DNA of 22,598 bases from Escherichia coli. GTDB taxonomy: Bacteria; Pseudomonadota; Gammaproteobacteria; Enterobacterales; Enterobacteriaceae. Each line of letters starts with the position of its first letter. Within the stretch, counting starts at the first letter, position 1. Below are positions 7,620 through 16,436 of the stretch, in pieces. The notes below the pieces were generated by a model. The model did not search any database. It saw only the letters and a list, made by a program, of their open reading frames with translations, and had not been told where the DNA came from. The stretch lies in assembly GCF_003334815.1 (NCBI RefSeq), contig NZ_QOWO01000052.1; one strand, written 5' to 3'. The position numbers were made by a program, and so were the translations under genes.

Positions 7620-7790
7620 TACTCCTGTGAGTTTTTGAGTTTACCATACTCTTTGTGTGAGTAAAGGTTAATATGAGTTTATGAGTTTATGAGTTTATGA
7701 GTTAAAGTGCATATACTCATTTGAGTTTTGTTGTGTATATGAGTATGTGAGTTTATGAGTGTGGGTGACGATGTCACATTTACTCATTAT
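7620..7790. promoter_or_regulatory. parH-like partition centromere/operator: array of degenerate GAGT/ACTC tetramers in AT-rich DNA
   Basis: Upstream of parF: ...gagtttttgagttta...actctttgtgtgagtaaa...atgagtttatgagtttatgagtttatgagtt...actcatttgagtttt...gagtatgtgagtttatgagtg...; TP228 parH is described as ACTC tetramers with AT-rich spacers. Confidence 0.7.
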
Positions 7791-7890
7791 TTGTTTTTTC
7801 GGTTCTTTTAGAGTGTGCCTTTCCTGTCGATCCACTTTCTGGTTCATTTTGGGTATAGTGGTGTGACCTTATGCGAACTGGTTCTGTAAT

Positions 7891-8535
7891 ATGACTTCAA
7901 ATGCACCAACAAACTTTGTCCGCGCTTATCTGAGAGCTTCAACAGCAGAACAGGATGCTTCGCGTGCCCTGGAAACTATCGAGGCTTTTGCCAGGGAAAG
8001 AGGCCTGATCATTTGCAGCTATTATATTGAGAATGAATCCGGTTCCCGTCTTGACCGTCCAGAACTTTTTCGTCTTCTGAGAGATTGCCAGCAAAATGAC
8101 ATTTTGTTGATCGAGGATGTGGACAGACTTTCCCGCCTGTCAGGGGAAGACTGGAATACGCTGAAGAAAATGATCCGTCAGAAAGATATCCGGGTTATGG
8201 CCGTGAACGTTCCGACCACATGGATTAATTCTGGTATGAGTGAGTTTGATAGCCGGTTGTTTGCAGCCATTAACGATATGCTGCTGGATATGTTGGCCGC
8301 TGTTGCCAGAAGGGACTATGAACAACGGCGGGAACGCCAGAAACAGGGGATAGAGAAAGCAAGGAAAGACGGCAAATATAAAGGGCGCAAACCTAATCAA
8401 GCCAGACATGATGCAATTATCAGGTTGATAGAAAGCGGCAGTTCCTGGACACAGGTACAGAAGGTACTTGGATGCAGCCGTGGCACAATAAGCTGTGCGC
8501 TAAAACGTAAATCCCGGCAATCCACCTGTGAGTAG
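7891..8535 (+). CDS. Serine recombinase (resolvase/invertase family)
   Basis: 214-aa ORF divergent from parFG; N-terminal catalytic-domain pattern (VRAYLRASTAEQD, cf. Y.RVST..Q with a presumptive catalytic Ser) and a C-terminal HTH-like segment (WTQVQKVLGCSRGTISCALKR). Confidence 0.75.
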   Translation: MTSNAPTNFVRAYLRASTAEQDASRALETIEAFARERGLIICSYYIENESGSRLDRPELFRLLRDCQQNDILLIEDVDRLSRLSGEDWNTLKKMIRQKDIRVMAVNVPTTWINSGMSEFDSRLFAAINDMLLDMLAAVARRDYEQRRERQKQGIEKARKDGKYKGRKPNQARHDAIIRLIESGSSWTQVQKVLGCSRGTISCALKRKSRQSTCE

Positions 8536-8568
8536 GGCAGGGCGAAAAGGAAGCGATTATCCTGAATA

Positions 8569-8833
8569 AGGGGTTGTATGCCGGAAACGCCGAAATTTCC
8601 GATACAGAGAATTTGTTGATTTTTACAGCATGTTTGGCAAGTTTTGACGTGTACGTTTATTGTGCAATAAGTAAGAATTTGTCCGTACCAGCTATGTGAT
8701 ACGTTACGAGCAGTGATTTTTCGCTCTAAACAGCTATTTCTTTGCTGTCCGGTTAACAGCGGTCTTGCGTACAGGTTGCCGAGCGCAAAATTTATGCATT
8801 CCGGAAATTTTGGCTGTTGCGGCTTGGAACCCC
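8569..8833. repeat. Left arm of a 265-bp inverted repeat
   Basis: 8569-8833 is the reverse complement of 11522-11786 with only a few mismatches (e.g. ...gccggaaacgccgaaatttccgatacagagaatttgttgatttttacagcatgtttggcaag...). Confidence 0.9.
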
Positions 8834-9141
8834 CTTATACATTAAGATTGACGAAATTTATCCGAACATAAGCAAATGACGGAGTTCGCGTACCTCAAAG
8901 ATGAGTTAAAGTTATTGGACTTCGAGAAGGGATGATAAAGATTTGCGTTCTTTAGAAGCGAAAAACCCCAGCAGAGCCGGGGTCCTTCAATTCTTTTGCC
9001 GGATGTGCCTTCACTAGAACCCATGAAACATGGGGGATGATTCAACACTGGCTAACGTTATGTGATTACAATAGCGTAATATAGTCTGTACGTCAATGCG
9101 CATAGAAATCGAGACAGGGTAGTCCCTGAACAGGAGATTAA

Positions 9142-10086
9142 ATGCCTCAAAGAATCAATGATTACAAACCTGTACTTTCACTACTATCAACAGCAAGGCT
9201 TGCAAGCGTTCCAGCTATCTTTAACGTACACACCGATTTGGAAAAGTATGGATTTAGTCTGTGGATCCAGAACGCAGCTGCCTCACTCTATCCACTTGTG
9301 CAGCAACTTGAATTGGTTCTCAGGAATTCGGTTGATAAAGCAGCTCGTACAAGATTTGGTGAACGGTGGTGGGATACCATCTCGTATGATACGACGAAAG
9401 ACAATCACGATAAGTTCATCAATTGCATCAGAGATGCTGAACGGAGCTTATTAAAAAAATGGAAAGCCAAAGAGGTCGCTCGCCTTGGTTTAAGCCATCC
9501 ATCGCAAATAACAACGACGCCACCAGTTTTTTCACATGATGATATTATTGCAGCGACCACATTTTCCACATGGGAGAATGTTTTTCTTGAGGCGCTTCAT
9601 ACAGACGATAACGCTAAAAAAAATGATTTCCTTTGGCCTAACTCTCTTCCAAAAGCTCTGAGAAGGCTAAGTGTAATTGATAACAAACCCGTCGAGGCTC
9701 GTCGTAAGTTATTGAATCTACTCAAAGAGATAAGAGACTACCGCAATAGACTTTTTCATCATGACTGTATCTGGATAAAAATTAAAACTGTAGATAAACA
9801 GACTGCAATTGAATCAATTCGTGAAAAAATCAATCTAATCGAAAAGATCATAACAGCGATCAGTCCTGTAACTAACCGCGCTTTGACTGCGTGGGGTATG
9901 TATGAAAATGCCCGCAGAATCTGCTCCACTGCAGAACTATCCATTTATACAAATCTTAACTATCAGGTACCAAACATAGCTACGCCAGGGCTGCTTGGTC
10001 AATTAATGCTTCAGACAAATGGTGGAAAAGAAACGGTGCCTATGATGCTGCAAAATGAGGCCTGTGTTTTCTATAAATTAAGGTGA
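9142..10086 (+). CDS. Abortive-infection candidate, Abi_2 (AbiD/AbiF-like) family
   Basis: 314-aa ORF with a strong SD (aggag 7 bp upstream); contains IRDYRNRLFHHDCIW, matching the R-N-x-x-H-H pattern I recall for AbiD/AbiF-type proteins; sits in an IS-scarred cassette. Confidence 0.5.
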   Translation: MPQRINDYKPVLSLLSTARLASVPAIFNVHTDLEKYGFSLWIQNAAASLYPLVQQLELVLRNSVDKAARTRFGERWWDTISYDTTKDNHDKFINCIRDAERSLLKKWKAKEVARLGLSHPSQITTTPPVFSHDDIIAATTFSTWENVFLEALHTDDNAKKNDFLWPNSLPKALRRLSVIDNKPVEARRKLLNLLKEIRDYRNRLFHHDCIWIKIKTVDKQTAIESIREKINLIEKIITAISPVTNRALTAWGMYENARRICSTAELSIYTNLNYQVPNIATPGLLGQLMLQTNGGKETVPMMLQNEACVFYKLR

Positions 10087-10367
10087 AAGTACATAGCTTT
10101 AGCGGAAGCGAGACGCCGCATGTCAGCGGCTACTATCAAAACAGATGATCTCCCGCTACCCATATTTTCCTGGTTCTCCCTGTCTGGCCATCAGAGTAAA
10201 CTGGTGGGGCAGGGAGGCATCTCCTTCAGGAACGGCTATCCAGCCGCAGCTTTTCAGCAACTCATTGAGCGCTTCAGCCTGCCCGCTTATTCTGGCTGGC
10301 ACTGGTAGATGATATGACCTTTATATACTCACTATAGCATTGGTGGGATATTCCAGAGGAGGTCATC

Positions 10368-11337
10368 ATGCATTCGGAAAATATTGCGGCTTACGTCGGG
10401 CTGGATGTGCATAAAGAAACGTTGGCGGTTGCTATTGCTGTACCTGAACGGCTTGGCGAAGTTCGTTATTATGGTACGATTAACAGACAGAATCAAAAAT
10501 GATCATCGGGACGCAATTTCTCTCGCCAGGTTACTGCGGGCTGGAGAACTTACCCCTGTCTGGATCCCTGAGCTGACTCATGAAGCTATGCGGGATCTAA
10601 TCAGAGCCCGTGCAGCAGCTAAACGAGACAGCAGAGTTGCCCGACAGCGAATTCTGAGCATGCTATTGCGAACAGACAAACATTATGCTGGAAAGCACTG
10701 GACAGGAAAACACCGAACCTGGTTAGCTAATCAATCATTTAGTCAGCCATCTCAACAGATTGCTTTTCAACACTATTGTCAAAGTCTGGAGCAGATTGAA
10801 GATCGCATACTTCAACTCGACCAGGAAATATCTCGCCTGTTACCTGAGTGGTCTCTGTGCAATCTGGTCTGCCAGTTGCAGGCTCTTAAAGGTGTTGGTC
10901 AGCTAATCGCAATAACCCTGGTTGCTGAACTGGATGATTTTTCGCGATTTTCCAATCCCAAACAGCTCATGGCTTTTTTGGGACTGGTGCCAGGTGAATA
11001 TTCCAGTGGAAACAGTATTCGTCCCAGAGGAATAACAAAAGTTGGAAACAGCGAACTGAGTCGTCTGCTTTACGAAGCCGCCTGGTCTTATCGTACACCT
11101 GCAAAAGTTGGTGCATGGCTTATATATTACCGACCGGATTCTGTAACACAATATTCCAAAGATATTGCATGGAAAGCTCAACAACGATTGTGTTCTCGTT
11201 ACCGAAGTCTGACAGCAAAAGGGAAAAAATCACAAGTAGCCATTACGGCGGTGGCTCGTGAGTTGACTGGATTTATGTGGGATATTGCACTTGCTGCCCA
11301 TCATCATTCAGTCAGCAGAAGCAAAATTAAACCCTGA
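10368..11337 (+). pseudogene. IS110-family transposase remnant (frameshift plus internal deletion)
   Basis: ATG at 10368 (SD aggagg) gives MHSENIAAYVGLDVHKETLAVAIAVPERLGEVRYYGTINRQNQK then a stop; the rest (NDHRDAISLARLLRAGEL...KGVGQLIAITLVAELDDFSRFSNPKQLMAFLGLVPGEYSSGNSIR...) continues in another frame; most of the N-terminal catalytic domain between the VGLDV and NDxxDA motifs is missing. Confidence 0.7.
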
Positions 11338-11521
11338 ATTTGTTTCCCTTCTTCATTGAAGGCGATGTCCAGAGCGCTTTTCAGAAGACAGATGCTGTTT
11401 ACTGATGCCGAGGTCTGGATTCGGTGCCGGCCAGTCCAGTCTCTGTTGCTAAGGGCCTGATAGACCCAGGCATGACCCATCAGGAGTTCCATGGCGTAGG
11501 TCAGCCGGAACATATCATTTT

Positions 11522-11786
11522 GGGGTTCCAAGCCGCAACCGCCGAAATTTCCGGAATGCATAAATTTTGCGCTCGGCAACCTGTACGCAAGACCGCTGTT
11601 AACCGGACAGCAAAGAAATAGCTGTTTAGAGCGAAAAATCACTGCTCGTAACGTATCACATAGCTGGTACGGACAAATTCTTACTTATTGCACAATAAAC
11701 GTACACGTCAAAACTTGCCAAACATGCTGTAAAAATCAACAAATTCTCTGTATCGGAAATTTCGGCGTTTCCGGCGTACAACCCCT
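11522..11786. repeat. Right arm of the 265-bp inverted repeat
   Basis: Reverse complement of 8569-8833. Confidence 0.9.
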
Positions 11787-11803
11787 ATCTGCGTGAAGGT
11801 CGA

Positions 11804-12262
11804 ATGTCAGCCAGGTACGCAACAAGCGCTGTTGGCGTCGACTTAGGGACCCTTCTCACGGTGAAAAGCTGGTTGCCGGCCGTCTGCATCGCGATCTGGA
11901 ATCAGCATCAGGGAAAGTACTGTGGGCACGTAAAAAAGCCCGTGTTCGCGCTATCCATTCAAAACAGCAAAGACGCTCTGTACAAATTTAGCACGGCGTA
12001 TGCGGCAATCTTCCTTCGTAGGCAAAATGGCTAAGAGCGCTTTAGACACTGGCTGGTCAATGCTCAAAAAACAACTGAAATACAAGGTGATAGCACGGTC
12101 AGGGGGGGCGTCGTAAACGACAGTTATTCCACCTAGGGTTTTTCATGCTCTCCTGGAACTGCTCATGACCCCGACGTAAACACCGAAAAGAACATTCTCG
12201 CGACGGGGCACGCCGTTCTGTCTGTGGAGGGTGGGACAGTCAGGGGGCCCGTTGAAGCATAA
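11804..12262 (+). pseudogene. Degraded TnpB (IS200/IS605-family OrfB) remnant
   Basis: Fragments across three frames: AVGVDLGTLLTV (cf. VGIDLGLK), MAKSALDTGWSMLKKQLKYK (cf. DAGWG.F...LEYKA), and AHDPDVNTEKNILATGHAVLSVEGG (cf. TnpB C-terminal DADVNAA.NIL..G); interrupted by stops and frameshifts. Confidence 0.55.
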
Positions 12263-12765: not shown

Positions 12766-13077
12766 ATGGATGGTGTGGTTTCTGATTATAAATTTTTTCT
12801 AGAGGAATCTCATTGTTCGCGAATTAGGCGAGGAGTGATAAAACCCGGGATATTGACTGATGAGCAATATGAATTGCTTATTGAGTTATCTCCTGTTTAT
12901 AGCTGTAAAATAATATATGCAATGAGAGATTATCTGGTGGCGGGGCATCCGAGAAAAACTGTATGTGAAAGGCACAATGTGAGTAATGGATATCTTAGTA
13001 CCAGTTTAAAGAAACTCTACTATACGAACAGTGTAGTAATTAGATTGATGCAAATTTACAAAAGTAATCATCAATAA
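12766..13077 (+). CDS. PapB/AfaA-family fimbrial operon transcriptional regulator
   Basis: 103-aa ORF; IIYAMRDYLVAGHPRKTVCERHNVSNGYLSTSLKKL matches the PapB-family core (DYLV.G..RK.VCE....NGYFST.L..L) from memory; first gene of the chaperone-usher cluster; ggag SD. Confidence 0.75.
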   Translation: MDGVVSDYKFFLEESHCSRIRRGVIKPGILTDEQYELLIELSPVYSCKIIYAMRDYLVAGHPRKTVCERHNVSNGYLSTSLKKLYYTNSVVIRLMQIYKSNHQ

Positions 13078-13147
13078 TAACACAATTAATTGATTGCAGA
13101 TTATAAAAATCAGCCAAAGAACATTCAGATCTGGCTTCGGGGGGGGT

Positions 13148-13891
13148 ATGCTTAAAAAAATAATTTTAATTATAACAGCGACATTTTCAGTTATATCTCA
13201 TGCAACACAAATAGAAACAACCACAAGAAGTTTTAGCAGTTTTCTTGGTACAACGAGGATTGTTTTCGACTCAGACACTGACAGTTATAACTTGCCTGTT
13301 GATAACAGGCTGGATTATCCCGTTCTGGTCGAAACAAAGATAATGGATGAGAATTCTGAAAAAACATCATCAAAATATATTGCCACACCACCTTTGTTTC
13401 GTCTGGATGGCGGGCAGAAAAACACAGTTTCGATAATTAAAGTTAGTGATGATTTTGCCAAAGATGTGGAAAGTATGAACTGGGTATGTGTCAAAAACAT
13501 CCCGCCGTCTGACGGTAGCGCCTGGACGGATAATGAGTTAAATAATAAAAACAGTGTACTAAACGTCAACATCATGGTTAATAACTGCATCAAGTTAATA
13601 ATGAGACCTGCCTCATTAGAAAACATAAAAGATGCAAGTTATGGTGATAAATTAAAATGGAGCATTGACAGCGGAAAACTTACCGTTGAAAACCCAACAC
13701 CGTATTACATTAATTTTAGTGAAATCAAACTTAACGGTAAAAATATTACACCCCCAGTGTTTGTTAAACCAAAGAGTTCTTATGCTTTTGAAGATCTAAA
13801 GCAAGCTAAACAGACTGGGAATATCACCTGGCAATTACTAAATGATTTTGGTGCTAAAACTCGTGAATTTAAATCTACCGTAAGCCAATGA
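13148..13891 (+). CDS. PapD-like periplasmic pilus chaperone
   Basis: Start placed at MLKKIILIITATFSVISHA (signal peptide; G-rich SD upstream) rather than the ORF-track Met at 13094; PPLFRLDGGQKNTVSII matches the chaperone PPLFRL motif. Confidence 0.75.
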   Translation: MLKKIILIITATFSVISHATQIETTTRSFSSFLGTTRIVFDSDTDSYNLPVDNRLDYPVLVETKIMDENSEKTSSKYIATPPLFRLDGGQKNTVSIIKVSDDFAKDVESMNWVCVKNIPPSDGSAWTDNELNNKNSVLNVNIMVNNCIKLIMRPASLENIKDASYGDKLKWSIDSGKLTVENPTPYYINFSEIKLNGKNITPPVFVKPKSSYAFEDLKQAKQTGNITWQLLNDFGAKTREFKSTVSQ

Positions 13892-13910
13892 TAACAGAGA
13901 AAAGCTAATA

Positions 13911-16367
13911 ATGAAGACAAAAATAAACCCTATAGCCTATATGCTTATTGTGGCAGGCTTTTCTTATAACAATGATTTATTAGCAAAAAAAAGTGATTAT
14001 ATCTTTGATTCGGCATACGTTAATGGTAGTGACGTAACTCGCTTTAATGATGGCCAGCAATTACCTGGTAAATATCTGGTTACAGTCTCTGTTAATGAGC
14101 AGAGAAAAAAAGTTGGCAGTTACAAAGTTAACTTTGAGTACAGAGGAGAAACTCTCACCCCTGTACTCAACAAAGAAAAGCTGGCACTTTTTGGCATCAA
14201 TCCTGACAAGCTAAAGTTAACTTTATCCGGGGATGGAAATGAAATAGACTTTGACAGAAGTGATGTAAAGTTCAATTTTTCCTTTTATGGGATGAATTTG
14301 ACCCTTTATGTTCCTTCAAAGGCATTAGTGAATAAAACAAGTGAACTTGCTCATGAGTCTCAATGGGATGATGGAATTAATGCCTTCATACTCAACTATG
14401 ATGCTAAAGCCTGGCACAGGGATGTGAATTATGATTCACCTGATAATGAATCATATTATTTATCGTTAAATCCTGGTATGAATGTTGGCAGCTGGAGAGT
14501 ACGACACTCGGGCATATGGCGGAAAGGTTACGATAGAGAAAGTTCGTATCAGAAATCTTACACATATGCTGAAAGGGATATCCGGGCTTTAAAAAGCAAA
14601 ATACTTATTGGAGAAAGCAGTACTGGCTCAGATATATTCGGAAGCGTTCCCTTTAATGGCGTTAAACTGGCATCATCAGATGATATGGTTCCGTACTATG
14701 ACAGAGCGTTTGTGCCAGCGATCAGAGGCATCGCCAATAGCGTAGCGCAAGTGGAAGTGCGTCAGAACGGCTATCTGATTTACAGTACGGAAGTTCCCGC
14801 TGGCACTTTTGAACTGACGGATGTGCCAGCAGCACAGGGAGAAACGCTGGATGTAACAGTAAGAGAGGACAACGGAGCAGAGCAGCACTTCAGCGTCCCC
14901 TACAATACTCCTGCGATCTCTTTGAGAGAGGGCAGACTGAAGTACGAATTAACAGCCGGGACATACAGGCCATACTCTCGTTCGGCTAAAGATGACAGTT
15001 TTGGCCAGGCAACATTAATTTACGGCTTTAATGATACTCTTACTGGTTATACCGGATTACAGATCAGTGAGAAATATCAATCAGGTGCTGCAGGCCTTGG
15101 CTTTAATTTATATGACTACGGCGCGGCTTCAGTAGATGGCATTTATTCAAAAAATCGATATTCAGAAAACAAGACCGGAAGTGCATTCAGAGTAAGATAT
15201 AACAAGTTAATAGATACAACGAATACCTCTTTTGCTCTGGCAAGTTATCAATATGCGTCCAGGAGTTATAGTACGTTTGATGATGCTATGGAACCAGGCC
15301 AGAGTTATTCTTTCGGCAAGAGAAAAAATGACTTTAGCATCAGTATAAGACAGGAATTGTCTGATTATGGGAATCTTAACCTGTCCTATAGCAAGACTAC
15401 TTTTTGGGATAAGAAAAATGAATCTTATGCAAACCTGAACTATGACTCTTCATTATTTGGCTATGTTAGTTTTTCTCTTGGATGGAGCCGGGTACTGGAA
15501 TCTTACAGAAATACAAGAGCAAGAGAGGATATATATTCTGCCACATTCTCAATACCTTTGAGCAGGTTTACAGGCAGGAAATTAAATGCAAATATGCGGT
15601 ATCAGATAATTAATGAACGGGATAACAGTGTCAGCAATTCACTGAGTTTAAACGGAAATGCTTACGAAAACAGATTATCATGGAACGTAAGCCAGGGCAC
15701 TAACAGCAGGAATCATAACAATAACAGGACATCAGCCAATGCTTCGTTTAAACATTCGTTTGGTACCGTAAATGGAATGTATAACTACAGTCCTGTTTCT
15801 ACCCAGTTCGGCGGAGGGATGAATGGAAGTGTGATATTGCATGAGCATGGATTGACTTTTGGACAACCTGTTTATGACTCAGCTGCTCTGGTAGATACTA
15901 ACGGTGAATCAGGTATTAAAATCACCAACAAATCCGGTGTACAGACAGATAATAATGGATACGCTGTAGTAACGCCTCTGAATACTTACAGGATGAATGA
16001 CATTAGTATAAAACAAGCCAGGTTACAGAGTAAGTCTGACTTTAAACAGACAGTAACTTCTGTAGTACCAACAAGCAAAGCTCTTGTTTATGCAGGTTTC
16101 AAATCTGTAACAGGTGAAAAAGGGTTATTTAAACTTAAGGACAAAAATGACAAACCACTCCCCTTTGGAGCGATGGTATCTGTAATTGATCAGGATAACG
16201 CAGGCGTAATTGGTGATGAAGGTCAGGTATATTTAAGTGGTTTAAAGGAAAGTGGTGTTATTAAGGTGCGCTGGGGTAGTGGTATTAATCAGACATGCAG
16301 TATTCCATATGCACTTGGAAATAAAAATTCGGCGGGACTATATGTCTCCACCTTTAGATGCCAGTAG
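13911..16367 (+). CDS. Outer-membrane fimbrial usher
   Basis: 818-aa ORF; FNDGQQLPGKYLVTV and LASSDDMVPYYDRAFVPAIRGIANSVAQVEVRQNGYLIY match FimD-type usher segments ([51 protein letters not shown]) from memory. Confidence 0.85.
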   Translation: MKTKINPIAYMLIVAGFSYNNDLLAKKSDYIFDSAYVNGSDVTRFNDGQQLPGKYLVTVSVNEQRKKVGSYKVNFEYRGETLTPVLNKEKLALFGINPDKLKLTLSGDGNEIDFDRSDVKFNFSFYGMNLTLYVPSKALVNKTSELAHESQWDDGINAFILNYDAKAWHRDVNYDSPDNESYYLSLNPGMNVGSWRVRHSGIWRKGYDRESSYQKSYTYAERDIRALKSKILIGESSTGSDIFGSVPFNGVKLASSDDMVPYYDRAFVPAIRGIANSVAQVEVRQNGYLIYSTEVPAGTFELTDVPAAQGETLDVTVREDNGAEQHFSVPYNTPAISLREGRLKYELTAGTYRPYSRSAKDDSFGQATLIYGFNDTLTGYTGLQISEKYQSGAAGLGFNLYDYGAASVDGIYSKNRYSENKTGSAFRVRYNKLIDTTNTSFALASYQYASRSYSTFDDAMEPGQSYSFGKRKNDFSISIRQELSDYGNLNLSYSKTTFWDKKNESYANLNYDSSLFGYVSFSLGWSRVLESYRNTRAREDIYSATFSIPLSRFTGRKLNANMRYQIINERDNSVSNSLSLNGNAYENRLSWNVSQGTNSRNHNNNRTSANASFKHSFGTVNGMYNYSPVSTQFGGGMNGSVILHEHGLTFGQPVYDSAALVDTNGESGIKITNKSGVQTDNNGYAVVTPLNTYRMNDISIKQARLQSKSDFKQTVTSVVPTSKALVYAGFKSVTGEKGLFKLKDKNDKPLPFGAMVSVIDQDNAGVIGDEGQVYLSGLKESGVIKVRWGSGINQTCSIPYALGNKNSAGLYVSTFRCQ

Positions 16368-16436
16368 TTTCTGTTTGCTTTAATCCCGGGTAAACAGAAT
16401 AGCCAATTGGGATGATCAACTAAACATGAGGTTAAA

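Follow-up and report, generated by a model that had tools for sequence, protein, structure and literature searches.

The Escherichia coli contig NZ_QOWO01000052.1 (assembly GCF_003334815.1; the whole stretch analyzed here, 22,598 nucleotides, is hereafter called the window) carries a segment of 2.7 kb that is enclosed by two long inverted repeats and lies beside a serine recombinase gene. This arrangement raises the question of whether the segment is a recombinase-driven switch for the abortive-infection (Abi)-like gene within it, as the first-pass annotation had proposed, or a composite mobile unit with duplicated ends, which that annotation gave as its alternative. Our results favor the second answer. 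Positions 8570–11785 (3,216 bp) are very probably a known kind of mobile element, a hitch-hiking composite that moves an anti-phage gene between plasmids, and not a gene switch. Specifically, we interpret the repeats as two inverted copies of a Tn3-derived inverted-repeat miniature element (TIME), with the left terminal inverted repeat (IRL) facing outward at both ends and the cargo inside, i.e., a TIME composite (TIME-COMP).

An inverted repeat formed by two miniature elements

A repeat search located arms of 265 nt at 8569–8833 and 11522–11786 that are 99% complementary and separated by 2,688 nt, in agreement with the first-pass annotation, which had reported them with only a few mismatches. 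Inspection of the sequence showed that the repeated unit proper is 264 bp long, runs from GGGG to CCCC, and occupies 8570–8833 (plus strand, Abi-proximal) and 11522–11785 (minus strand, proximal to an insertion sequence (IS) remnant described below); the 265th pair (A8569/T11786) is a chance match of the flanks outside this unit. The two copies are 98.9% identical over 264 bp, and their three mismatches (element positions 10, 242, and 246) all fall within the terminal repeats. An inverted repeat of 264 nearly identical nucleotides is far beyond chance. Inverted duplicates can also arise when an assembler collapses or duplicates a repeat (e.g., CP061268.1), and nothing specific to the window points to such an error. 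Moreover, each of the three arm differences is linked to its own flank, and the identical two-arm structure is present in at least 10 other, independent assemblies (NCBI and ENA), so that an assembly artefact is negligibly probable here. A scan of the whole window against Rfam returned no family.

Each arm has its own imperfect terminal inverted repeats (IRs) of ~32 nt that start with GGGG (in the left copy, IRL at 8570–8601 and the right repeat, IRR, at 8802–8833). The window holds exactly four IR-like sequences, and tblastn gave no match to tnpA in it. With exactly four IRs and no Tn3-family transposase in the window, the unit is non-autonomous.

Solitary copies of the 264-bp unit with unchanged boundaries were found in 182 PLSDB plasmids; among 5,426 complete E. 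coli genomes, 210 (~4%) carry it, and 221 of 225 places were on plasmids. These E. coli copies usually occur once per genome, mostly at 88–92% identity, and are often truncated. Some copies retain the footprint of an insertion: a perfect 5-bp duplication (TTACT) flanks the copy in pSTEC299_1 (our locus L004; L and H numbers are our labels for loci and records), a 6-bp duplication (ACAGTT) flanks a 74% identical homolog in an Arsenophonus endosymbiont (L068), and four of five flanking bases match at L003. All element copies that we examined were unannotated or mislabelled.

Several further observations concern this distribution. Three truncated forms recur (~1–170, 82–264, and 105–264), each common to many large plasmids, and resemble old inherited remnants. 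On the IncK2/Z plasmids L007, L137, and L138, diverged copies (88–89%) adjoin truncated colicin E5 modules, and one coding sequence annotated as a "colicin E5-related ribonuclease" begins within the miniature element. One ColE1-type colicin S4 plasmid has a 38-bp IR on its own (L009 2634–2671); H110 (NZ_CP133874.1), considered as a parent transposon, was rejected as a solo 38-bp IR in a dimeric ColE1-type record. The sole other PLSDB plasmid with two copies, CP061268.1 (L142), is a palindromic duplication and not a composite: the entire 35-kb record is mirror-image, with genes palindromic around the replicon, and is probably a long-read assembly artefact.

Descent from a Tn3-family transposon

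A degenerate pattern of the terminal repeat occurs at at least 120 loci across Proteobacteria, in many of which the repeat adjoins the end of an open reading frame (ORF) of ~1,000 aa. All five ORFs tested scored 769–872 bits on NF033527 (NCBIfam Tn3-family transposase; cutoff 500 bits). The IRs of the arm are 88–92% identical, over 36–38 nt, to the IRs adjoining the 3' end of NF033527-positive tnpA genes, and such IR-adjoined transposase genes were found in Hafnia, Pantoea, Klebsiella, and E. coli plasmids. Complete two-ended elements of the parent type were identified in Hafnia psychrotolerans (L122; 5.3 kb) and on K. pneumoniae pKP13e (L134; 5.67 kb). In both, a serine recombinase gene (tnpR) is divergent from tnpA, with an intergenic region between them. 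Plasmids of E. coli, Klebsiella, Salmonella, and Serratia encode transposases at least 90% identical to that of the Hafnia parent type.

The interior of the arm (element positions ~80–204; 8649–8773 on the plus strand in the left copy, 11582–11706 in the right copy) aligned with this tnpR–tnpA intergenic region in blastn (L122 2210–2334 and L036 2688–2813). Local alignment gave z = 11.6 and 17.5 relative to 500 shuffles, in one orientation only, and a control stretch gave nothing. Conserved blocks are shared by the arm core and the parental intergenic regions, and the parents show TGTCCG-N16-CGGACA at the position aligned with the TGTCCG-N16-CGTACA of the arm. This imperfect 28-bp palindrome (8746–8773, plus strand; 11582–11609 in the right copy) is a candidate res site I, and it lies on the tnpA-proximal side, as res site I does in Tn3. 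Half-sites of the form TGTMCG number four in the 264-bp arm vs. ~1 per kb in the window (~15-fold enrichment). One 28-bp palindrome-like site plus extra half-sites were thus seen, and no three-subsite arrangement was discerned.

Because both IRs and a res-like core are retained while tnpR, tnpA, and passenger genes are gone, the arm is a deletion derivative of a Tn3-family transposon, i.e., a TIME. It is shorter than ~500 bp, lacks a transposase gene, and has Tn3-type IRs, and some members of its family are flanked by duplications of 5 bp (sometimes 6 bp). On the E. coli plasmid NZ_CP060058.1 (L133 1663–2867), a copy of ISEc45 lies directly beside the tnpR of a parent-type Tn3 transposon. A remnant of ISEc45 also lies within the composite (10305–11338), and either coincidence or a target preference of this IS110-family element may account for the two placements.

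Cargo of the composite

The first-pass annotation had placed an Abi-like gene and a decayed IS110-family transposase between the arms, and both identifications could be refined. The Abi-like ORF (9142–10086, plus strand) is PD-T4-5, with a PADLOC match to PDLC04038 (E = 3.1e-131; residues 1–313 vs. model positions 1–308 of 309); its match to Pfam Abi_2 was weak. PD-T4-5 is a plasmid-borne, single-gene abortive-infection system against phages and a distant relative of AbiD/F (PMC9519451). The IS110-family remnant (10305–11338, plus strand) is ISEc45, matching annotated copies in two pieces at 98.6–99.2% identity. It is N-terminally truncated and carries an internal deletion that leaves it ~170 bp shorter than intact copies, and its ORF scored 213 bits on NF033542 while covering only profile positions 81–338. 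This copy of ISEc45 is dead.

A spacer (11339–11521) separates the remnant from the right arm, and its last part (11464–11521) occurs only together with the second arm. In IncI plasmids, the shared module stops at 11463, whereas the metagenome contig L143, the IncX1 plasmids, and other two-arm contigs run through 11521 into the right arm. The second arm is intact only in IncX1; in L143 it is ended by the contig end.

Evidence that the composite moves as a unit

The module is 99.2–100% identical across IncX1 plasmids (the window and pISHS7_3), unrelated IncI plasmids, IS66-flanked sites, and chromosomal sites, although the backbones differ, and the whole unit is 99.7–99.9% identical in other contexts. 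For comparison, the partition region of IncX1 is only 92.6% identical between the window and pISHS7_3. Looking up the exact proteins added IS66-flanked, chromosomal, and another plasmid-like context, in all of which the right arm is truncated by other elements. The unit is thus present in at least four contexts.

Junctions were also compared at an IS91-family target. In the metagenome contig L143, the module (99.7% identity) starts with the left arm's first base, continues until 56 nt of the right arm have been read, and lies beside an IS91-family element, with ccgtTTTGT abutting the IRL. In L002, the IRL is followed by TTTGTggtg; the sequence after the IRL in the IncI plasmids is TTTGTggtgtttttt, where 49 nt, as far as the IS end, are 100% identical. 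The empty target in L144 reads ccgtTTTGTggtg / ccgtTTTGTggtgtttttt. Combining L143, L002, and the empty L144 reconstructs a 5-bp duplication, TTTGT. As the duplication encloses two outward-facing IRLs, insertion of a single element is excluded, and the reconstruction indicates that the composite has transposed as a unit at the IS91-family site. No unoccupied IncI site was found in PLSDB. The alternative raised by the first-pass annotation, a composite mobile unit with duplicated ends, is therefore essentially correct, given the miniature Tn3-family arms and the TTTGT duplication at a site other than that of the window.

In the additional contexts, the right arm is cut at different element positions. 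On L160 (ERZ28664828 scaffold_326), the module lies between two inverted copies of IS66, and an IS66 end (GTAAGCG...) cuts the right arm at 86/87. In two chromosomal contigs of 4.8 Mb (L148 and L149), an IS66 element is found upstream of the left arm, and it is at 141/142 that the right arm breaks off. At L150 (10694–10770) and L159 (GCA_000356665.2), the cut is at 200/201, within the 28-bp palindrome-like site, and was made by a Tn3-family end (GGGGTCAGTTTGGATATCG...) that resembles the IR of MITESen1 and is followed by a Tn3 transposase fragment and a resolvase gene. Furthermore, 12 nt beside the Abi-proximal arm (AATGGTTTTAAC) are common to L148 and L150/L154, whose flanks are otherwise unrelated. 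They constitute a second micro-patch travelling with the arm, similar to the 35-bp patch at 8535–8569 in the window.

The IncX1 site of the window

To the left of the composite, a 35-bp foreign patch (8535–8569) between the resolvase stop codon and the arm is 100% identical to Escherichia albertii pEA35_1 (H150) and ends there at the same base; arm-less IncX1 plasmids diverge from the window at 8519–8545. On the right, a fimbrial module begins, and its homolog in Salmonella pSNE1 starts at the same base. Both junctions of the window fall exactly at the IR tips. Neither plasmid represents an empty site, given that the match to pSNE1 (L010) starts at the base just beyond the right arm and does not span the arm, and that pEA35_1 shares only the 35-bp patch on the left.

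Some of our results weigh against the composite interpretation. We found no 5- or 6-bp duplication at the window site in any scenario considered (separate insertions, insertion of the unit, inner/inner pairing, and the pairing swapped by inversion), so that arrival at this site by transposition of the unit is unsupported. Most diverged E. coli copies of the element likewise lack target duplications, the left junction at the IS91-family site comes from a single short-read metagenome contig of low coverage (L143, 4.5x), and no cognate transposase is known in this host. The IncX1 copy probably lost its duplications afterwards, either when adjacent DNA was deleted or when the IR tips recombined.

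The lack of an ordinary duplication around either arm would also fit a history in which the second arm arose in place, by replicative transposition of a lone element to a second place on the same IncX1 plasmid with inversion of the DNA in between, since replicative Tn3-family transposition within one molecule yields exactly this topology. However, the reverse complementarity between inner and outer flanks that such an event predicts is absent (0–3 of 5 matches). In addition, the two-arm unit recurs, with unchanged internal junctions and arm-specific single-nucleotide polymorphisms (SNPs), at the IS91-family site and in IS66-flanked and chromosomal contexts and hence predates its IncX1 location. 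We therefore regard an origin of the second arm within this plasmid as very improbable.

The region to the right of the composite has features of its own. A fimbrial operon (12766–17000; PapB, PapD, and usher) is 96% identical to one on Salmonella Newport pSNE1 and is followed by a 1,370-aa Peptidase_S6 autotransporter ORF (17258–21370; Pfam). In pISHS7_3, the closest PLSDB relative, an IS200/IS605-family element (tnpA plus a larger transposase ORF; L001 9608–11358) replaces window positions 11123–12128, and this insertion removed the right arm.

The neighboring recombinase and the switch hypothesis

The serine recombinase ORF (7891–8535, plus strand) lies outside the element and ends 33–34 bp before the left arm, at the distance that the first-pass annotation had noted (34 bp). 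It is this proximity that suggested a programmed switch of the Hin/Gin type, in which the adjacent recombinase would flip the 2.7-kb segment and turn the Abi gene on or off. The best NCBIfam match of the recombinase, to an invertase family, points in the same direction but is below threshold (52 bits vs. a cutoff of 272), and a difference in orientation was observed at one other site (see below).

Nonetheless, the recombinase and the arms do not co-occur elsewhere. The gene is present at ~93–95% nucleotide identity in hundreds (>600) of arm-less IncX1-type plasmids with variable DNA downstream, and the arms are found in ~180 plasmids without the IncX1 recombinase. Nor does the sequence connect the two: the region upstream of the recombinase gene showed no half-sites, no motif shared with the arm core, and no similarity to it, and the arms carry the res region of the parental TnpR, with which the recombinase shares only 25% identity. 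On these grounds we rejected a link between the IncX1 resolvase and the arms. A flip would also change nothing borne by the arms. Each arm has a single, weak, inward-facing match to a sigma-70-like promoter, shuffled sequence yields no fewer matches in total, and identical inward-facing signals in both arms make inversion symmetric with respect to them; arm-borne promoters were accordingly rejected as the basis of a switch. Finally, 11 IncX1 instances with backbone divergence of up to 1.75% are all in one orientation, and at the site where both orientations exist (the IS91-family target on IncI plasmids) this recombinase does not lie beside the module.

Taken together, these results largely refute the programmed switch, which we consider highly improbable. 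The earlier proposal of an invertible cassette that flips the Abi gene relative to promoters, possibly driven by the recombinase, is not supported as a switch. The gene at 7891–8535 is the (multimer) resolvase of the IncX1 plasmid, as the first-pass annotation had suggested in its alternative; it belongs to the backbone, and its position beside the arm is coincidental.

Two observations concern the backbone near this gene. Between parA (6971–7618, minus strand) and the resolvase gene, a run of 8-bp iterons of the TGAGTTTA type (7628–7768) is probably the ParG/partition site of the IncX1 backbone. Identity between the window and pISHS7_3 (L001) rises from 92.6% over 6365–7890 to 99.8–100% over 7891–11123, then drops to 97.2% and falls to 93.6% in the fimbrial operon. 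The step at ~7890, located at the promoter/res region of the resolvase, suggests that IncX1 plasmids have exchanged DNA at their own res site.

Orientation of the segment

Orientation was compared in assembled sequences. The window as assembled has the flank pairing CCTGAATAA-arm-CTTATACA; a flipped segment would have CCTGAATAA-arm-AAAATGAT. All 11 two-arm IncX1 instances (the window, L145/155, L146, L151, L152/162, L156, L157, L158, L161, L163, and L164), with backbones 98.25–99.97% identical to the window, have one and the same orientation, as does the one-arm relative pISHS7_3. The IS91-family target differs: with the same TTTGT, L143 has the Abi-proximal arm on its left, and the IncI plasmids (L002, L147, and L153) have it on their right. 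Related plasmids thus show a single orientation in IncX1, and both are seen at the IS91-family site (L143 vs. L002).

The simplest reading of that site is a single past inversion between the arms, which is suggested but not proven by these sequences and probably happened at least once. It is possible, if somewhat short of an even chance, that the segment occasionally flips passively, either by RecA-mediated recombination or because a cognate TnpR from a co-resident element acts on the res-like cores, and with no regulatory purpose. Such flipping would be compatible with the composite interpretation and is favored by the 98.9% identity of the arms over 264 bp, by the two orientations behind the same TTTGT duplication, and by a precedent among TIME-COMPs built from TIME244 with tet(A), of which orientation isomers (52 vs. 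62) exist. On the other hand, a single orientation was found in all 11 IncX1 instances, the path through the repeat in L143 depends on a short-read assembly at 4.5x (ERZ1032816), and two independent insertions at the same site might account for the difference. The SNP pattern of the arms was discarded as a sign of arm exchange, because position 10 varies within the IncX1 lineage. It is therefore plausible that the arms make the segment passively invertible, whereas a regulated switch is not supported.

Proposed mechanism and significance

Our interpretation of the composite implies the following sequence of events. The arms are inversely oriented, non-autonomous 264-bp derivatives of a Tn3-family transposon and have lost its tnpR, tnpA, and passengers. 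If a Tn3-family transposase were provided in trans, it would bind the outer IR of each arm and mobilize the 3,216-bp unit by replicative (paste-and-copy) transposition with 5-bp duplications. Candidate transposases are encoded on E. coli, Klebsiella, and Salmonella plasmids, any of which might be the one that acts. Resolution of the resulting cointegrates would fall to RecA or, at the res-like cores, to a cognate TnpR, if these cores function as res sites.

In this regard, it is conceivable, although rather unlikely, that the cores of the arms are functional and that the miniature element combines a portable recombination site with a transposon end. If so, the TnpR of any co-resident parent-type transposon could, with no transposition involved, invert the PD-T4-5 cassette or exchange it between two replicons with one copy each. 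This would account for the position of most copies, both arms in the window among them, exactly at mosaic junctions without target duplications. The element would then also be a vehicle dedicated to shuttling a phage-defence gene between plasmids and chromosomes of E. coli.

Standard annotation does not see miniature Tn3 derivatives, which have until now been linked mainly to antibiotic-resistance genes. Here, a paired element carries an anti-phage gene of an experimentally validated type (PD-T4-5) into IncX1 plasmids, IncI plasmids, and chromosomes, which provides a further, concrete way in which defence genes can be moved inside cells and gives annotators a sequence to look for. The unit reveals no new mechanism but offers a testable case of a res-bearing miniature element. 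TIME-COMPs are already an established category, to which the window adds a composite built from a TIME that is apparently unnamed but may already have a name.

Comparison with known systems

The closest structural counterpart is TIME-COMP1 of Pseudomonas sp. ZM1 (Szuplewska et al. 2014, PMC4133298), which likewise consists of two Tn3-derived miniature elements of ~262 bp in opposite orientation around a ~2-kb core without transposition genes of its own, generates 5-bp direct repeats, and is plasmid-borne. The two differ in element sequence, host (Enterobacteriaceae for our unit), and cargo (an anti-phage gene and a dead IS vs. tnpR and a DUF1652 gene). Mobility of TIME-COMP1 was demonstrated experimentally, whereas that of the composite in the window is deduced from its junctions.

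Known enterobacterial TIMEs are also plasmid-restricted miniature Tn3 derivatives that form composites of inverted copies in Enterobacteriaceae. Some have a putative internal res site, orientation isomers occur at one site, and some of their composites lack direct repeats. Unlike these, our element has IRs of the ISPsy30/MITEPsy2 class rather than of Tn21 or Tn3, and its cargo is a defence gene rather than an antibiotic-resistance gene. Identity with TIME244, IS101, IMU, MITESen1, or MITEKpn1 was rejected, given that beyond the GGGG terminus only chance matches of 8–13 nt were obtained and none of these elements occurs in the window (sequences of the named enterobacterial TIMEs from Table S2, PMC13367494).

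With MITEPsy2 and ISPsy30 of Pseudomonas syringae (PMC3189936), the arm shares an origin in the Tn3 family, 5-bp direct repeats, and terminal repeats that are almost the same (GGGGTTGTAAGCCGGAACCGCCGAAATTTCCG vs. GGGGTTGTACGCCGGAAACGCCGAAATTTCCG). MITEPsy2 is 228 bp long compared with 264 bp and has another host range. At the 227–228-bp two-IR loci of P. syringae pv. cilantro (L102 and L105), which we took as MITEPsy2 by size and IRs only, just the terminal repeat of the arm was found among the blastn matches listed, in L105. MITEs (miniature transposable elements with inverted repeats) of ~262 bp on Pseudomonas plasmids (bioRxiv 10.1101/2020.12.23.424275) belong to the same IR class as the arm.

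The autonomous Tn3-family transposons L122 and L134 have IRs 88–92% identical to those of the arm and an intergenic region homologous to its core, including the 28-bp palindrome. These transposons measure 5.3–5.7 kb and encode TnpA, TnpR, and passenger ORFs, none of which the arm has, and the first ~80 nt of the arm have no counterpart in them. With regard to the Hin/Gin/Cin/Pin segments, the likeness lies in inverted repeats that flank a segment beside a serine recombinase gene. Those systems recombine at crossover sites of 26 bp and have a dedicated invertase, whose gene contains an enhancer. In contrast, the repeats in the window are transposon-derived, and the recombinase is a plasmid resolvase that does not co-occur with them elsewhere and beside which the segment has a single orientation.

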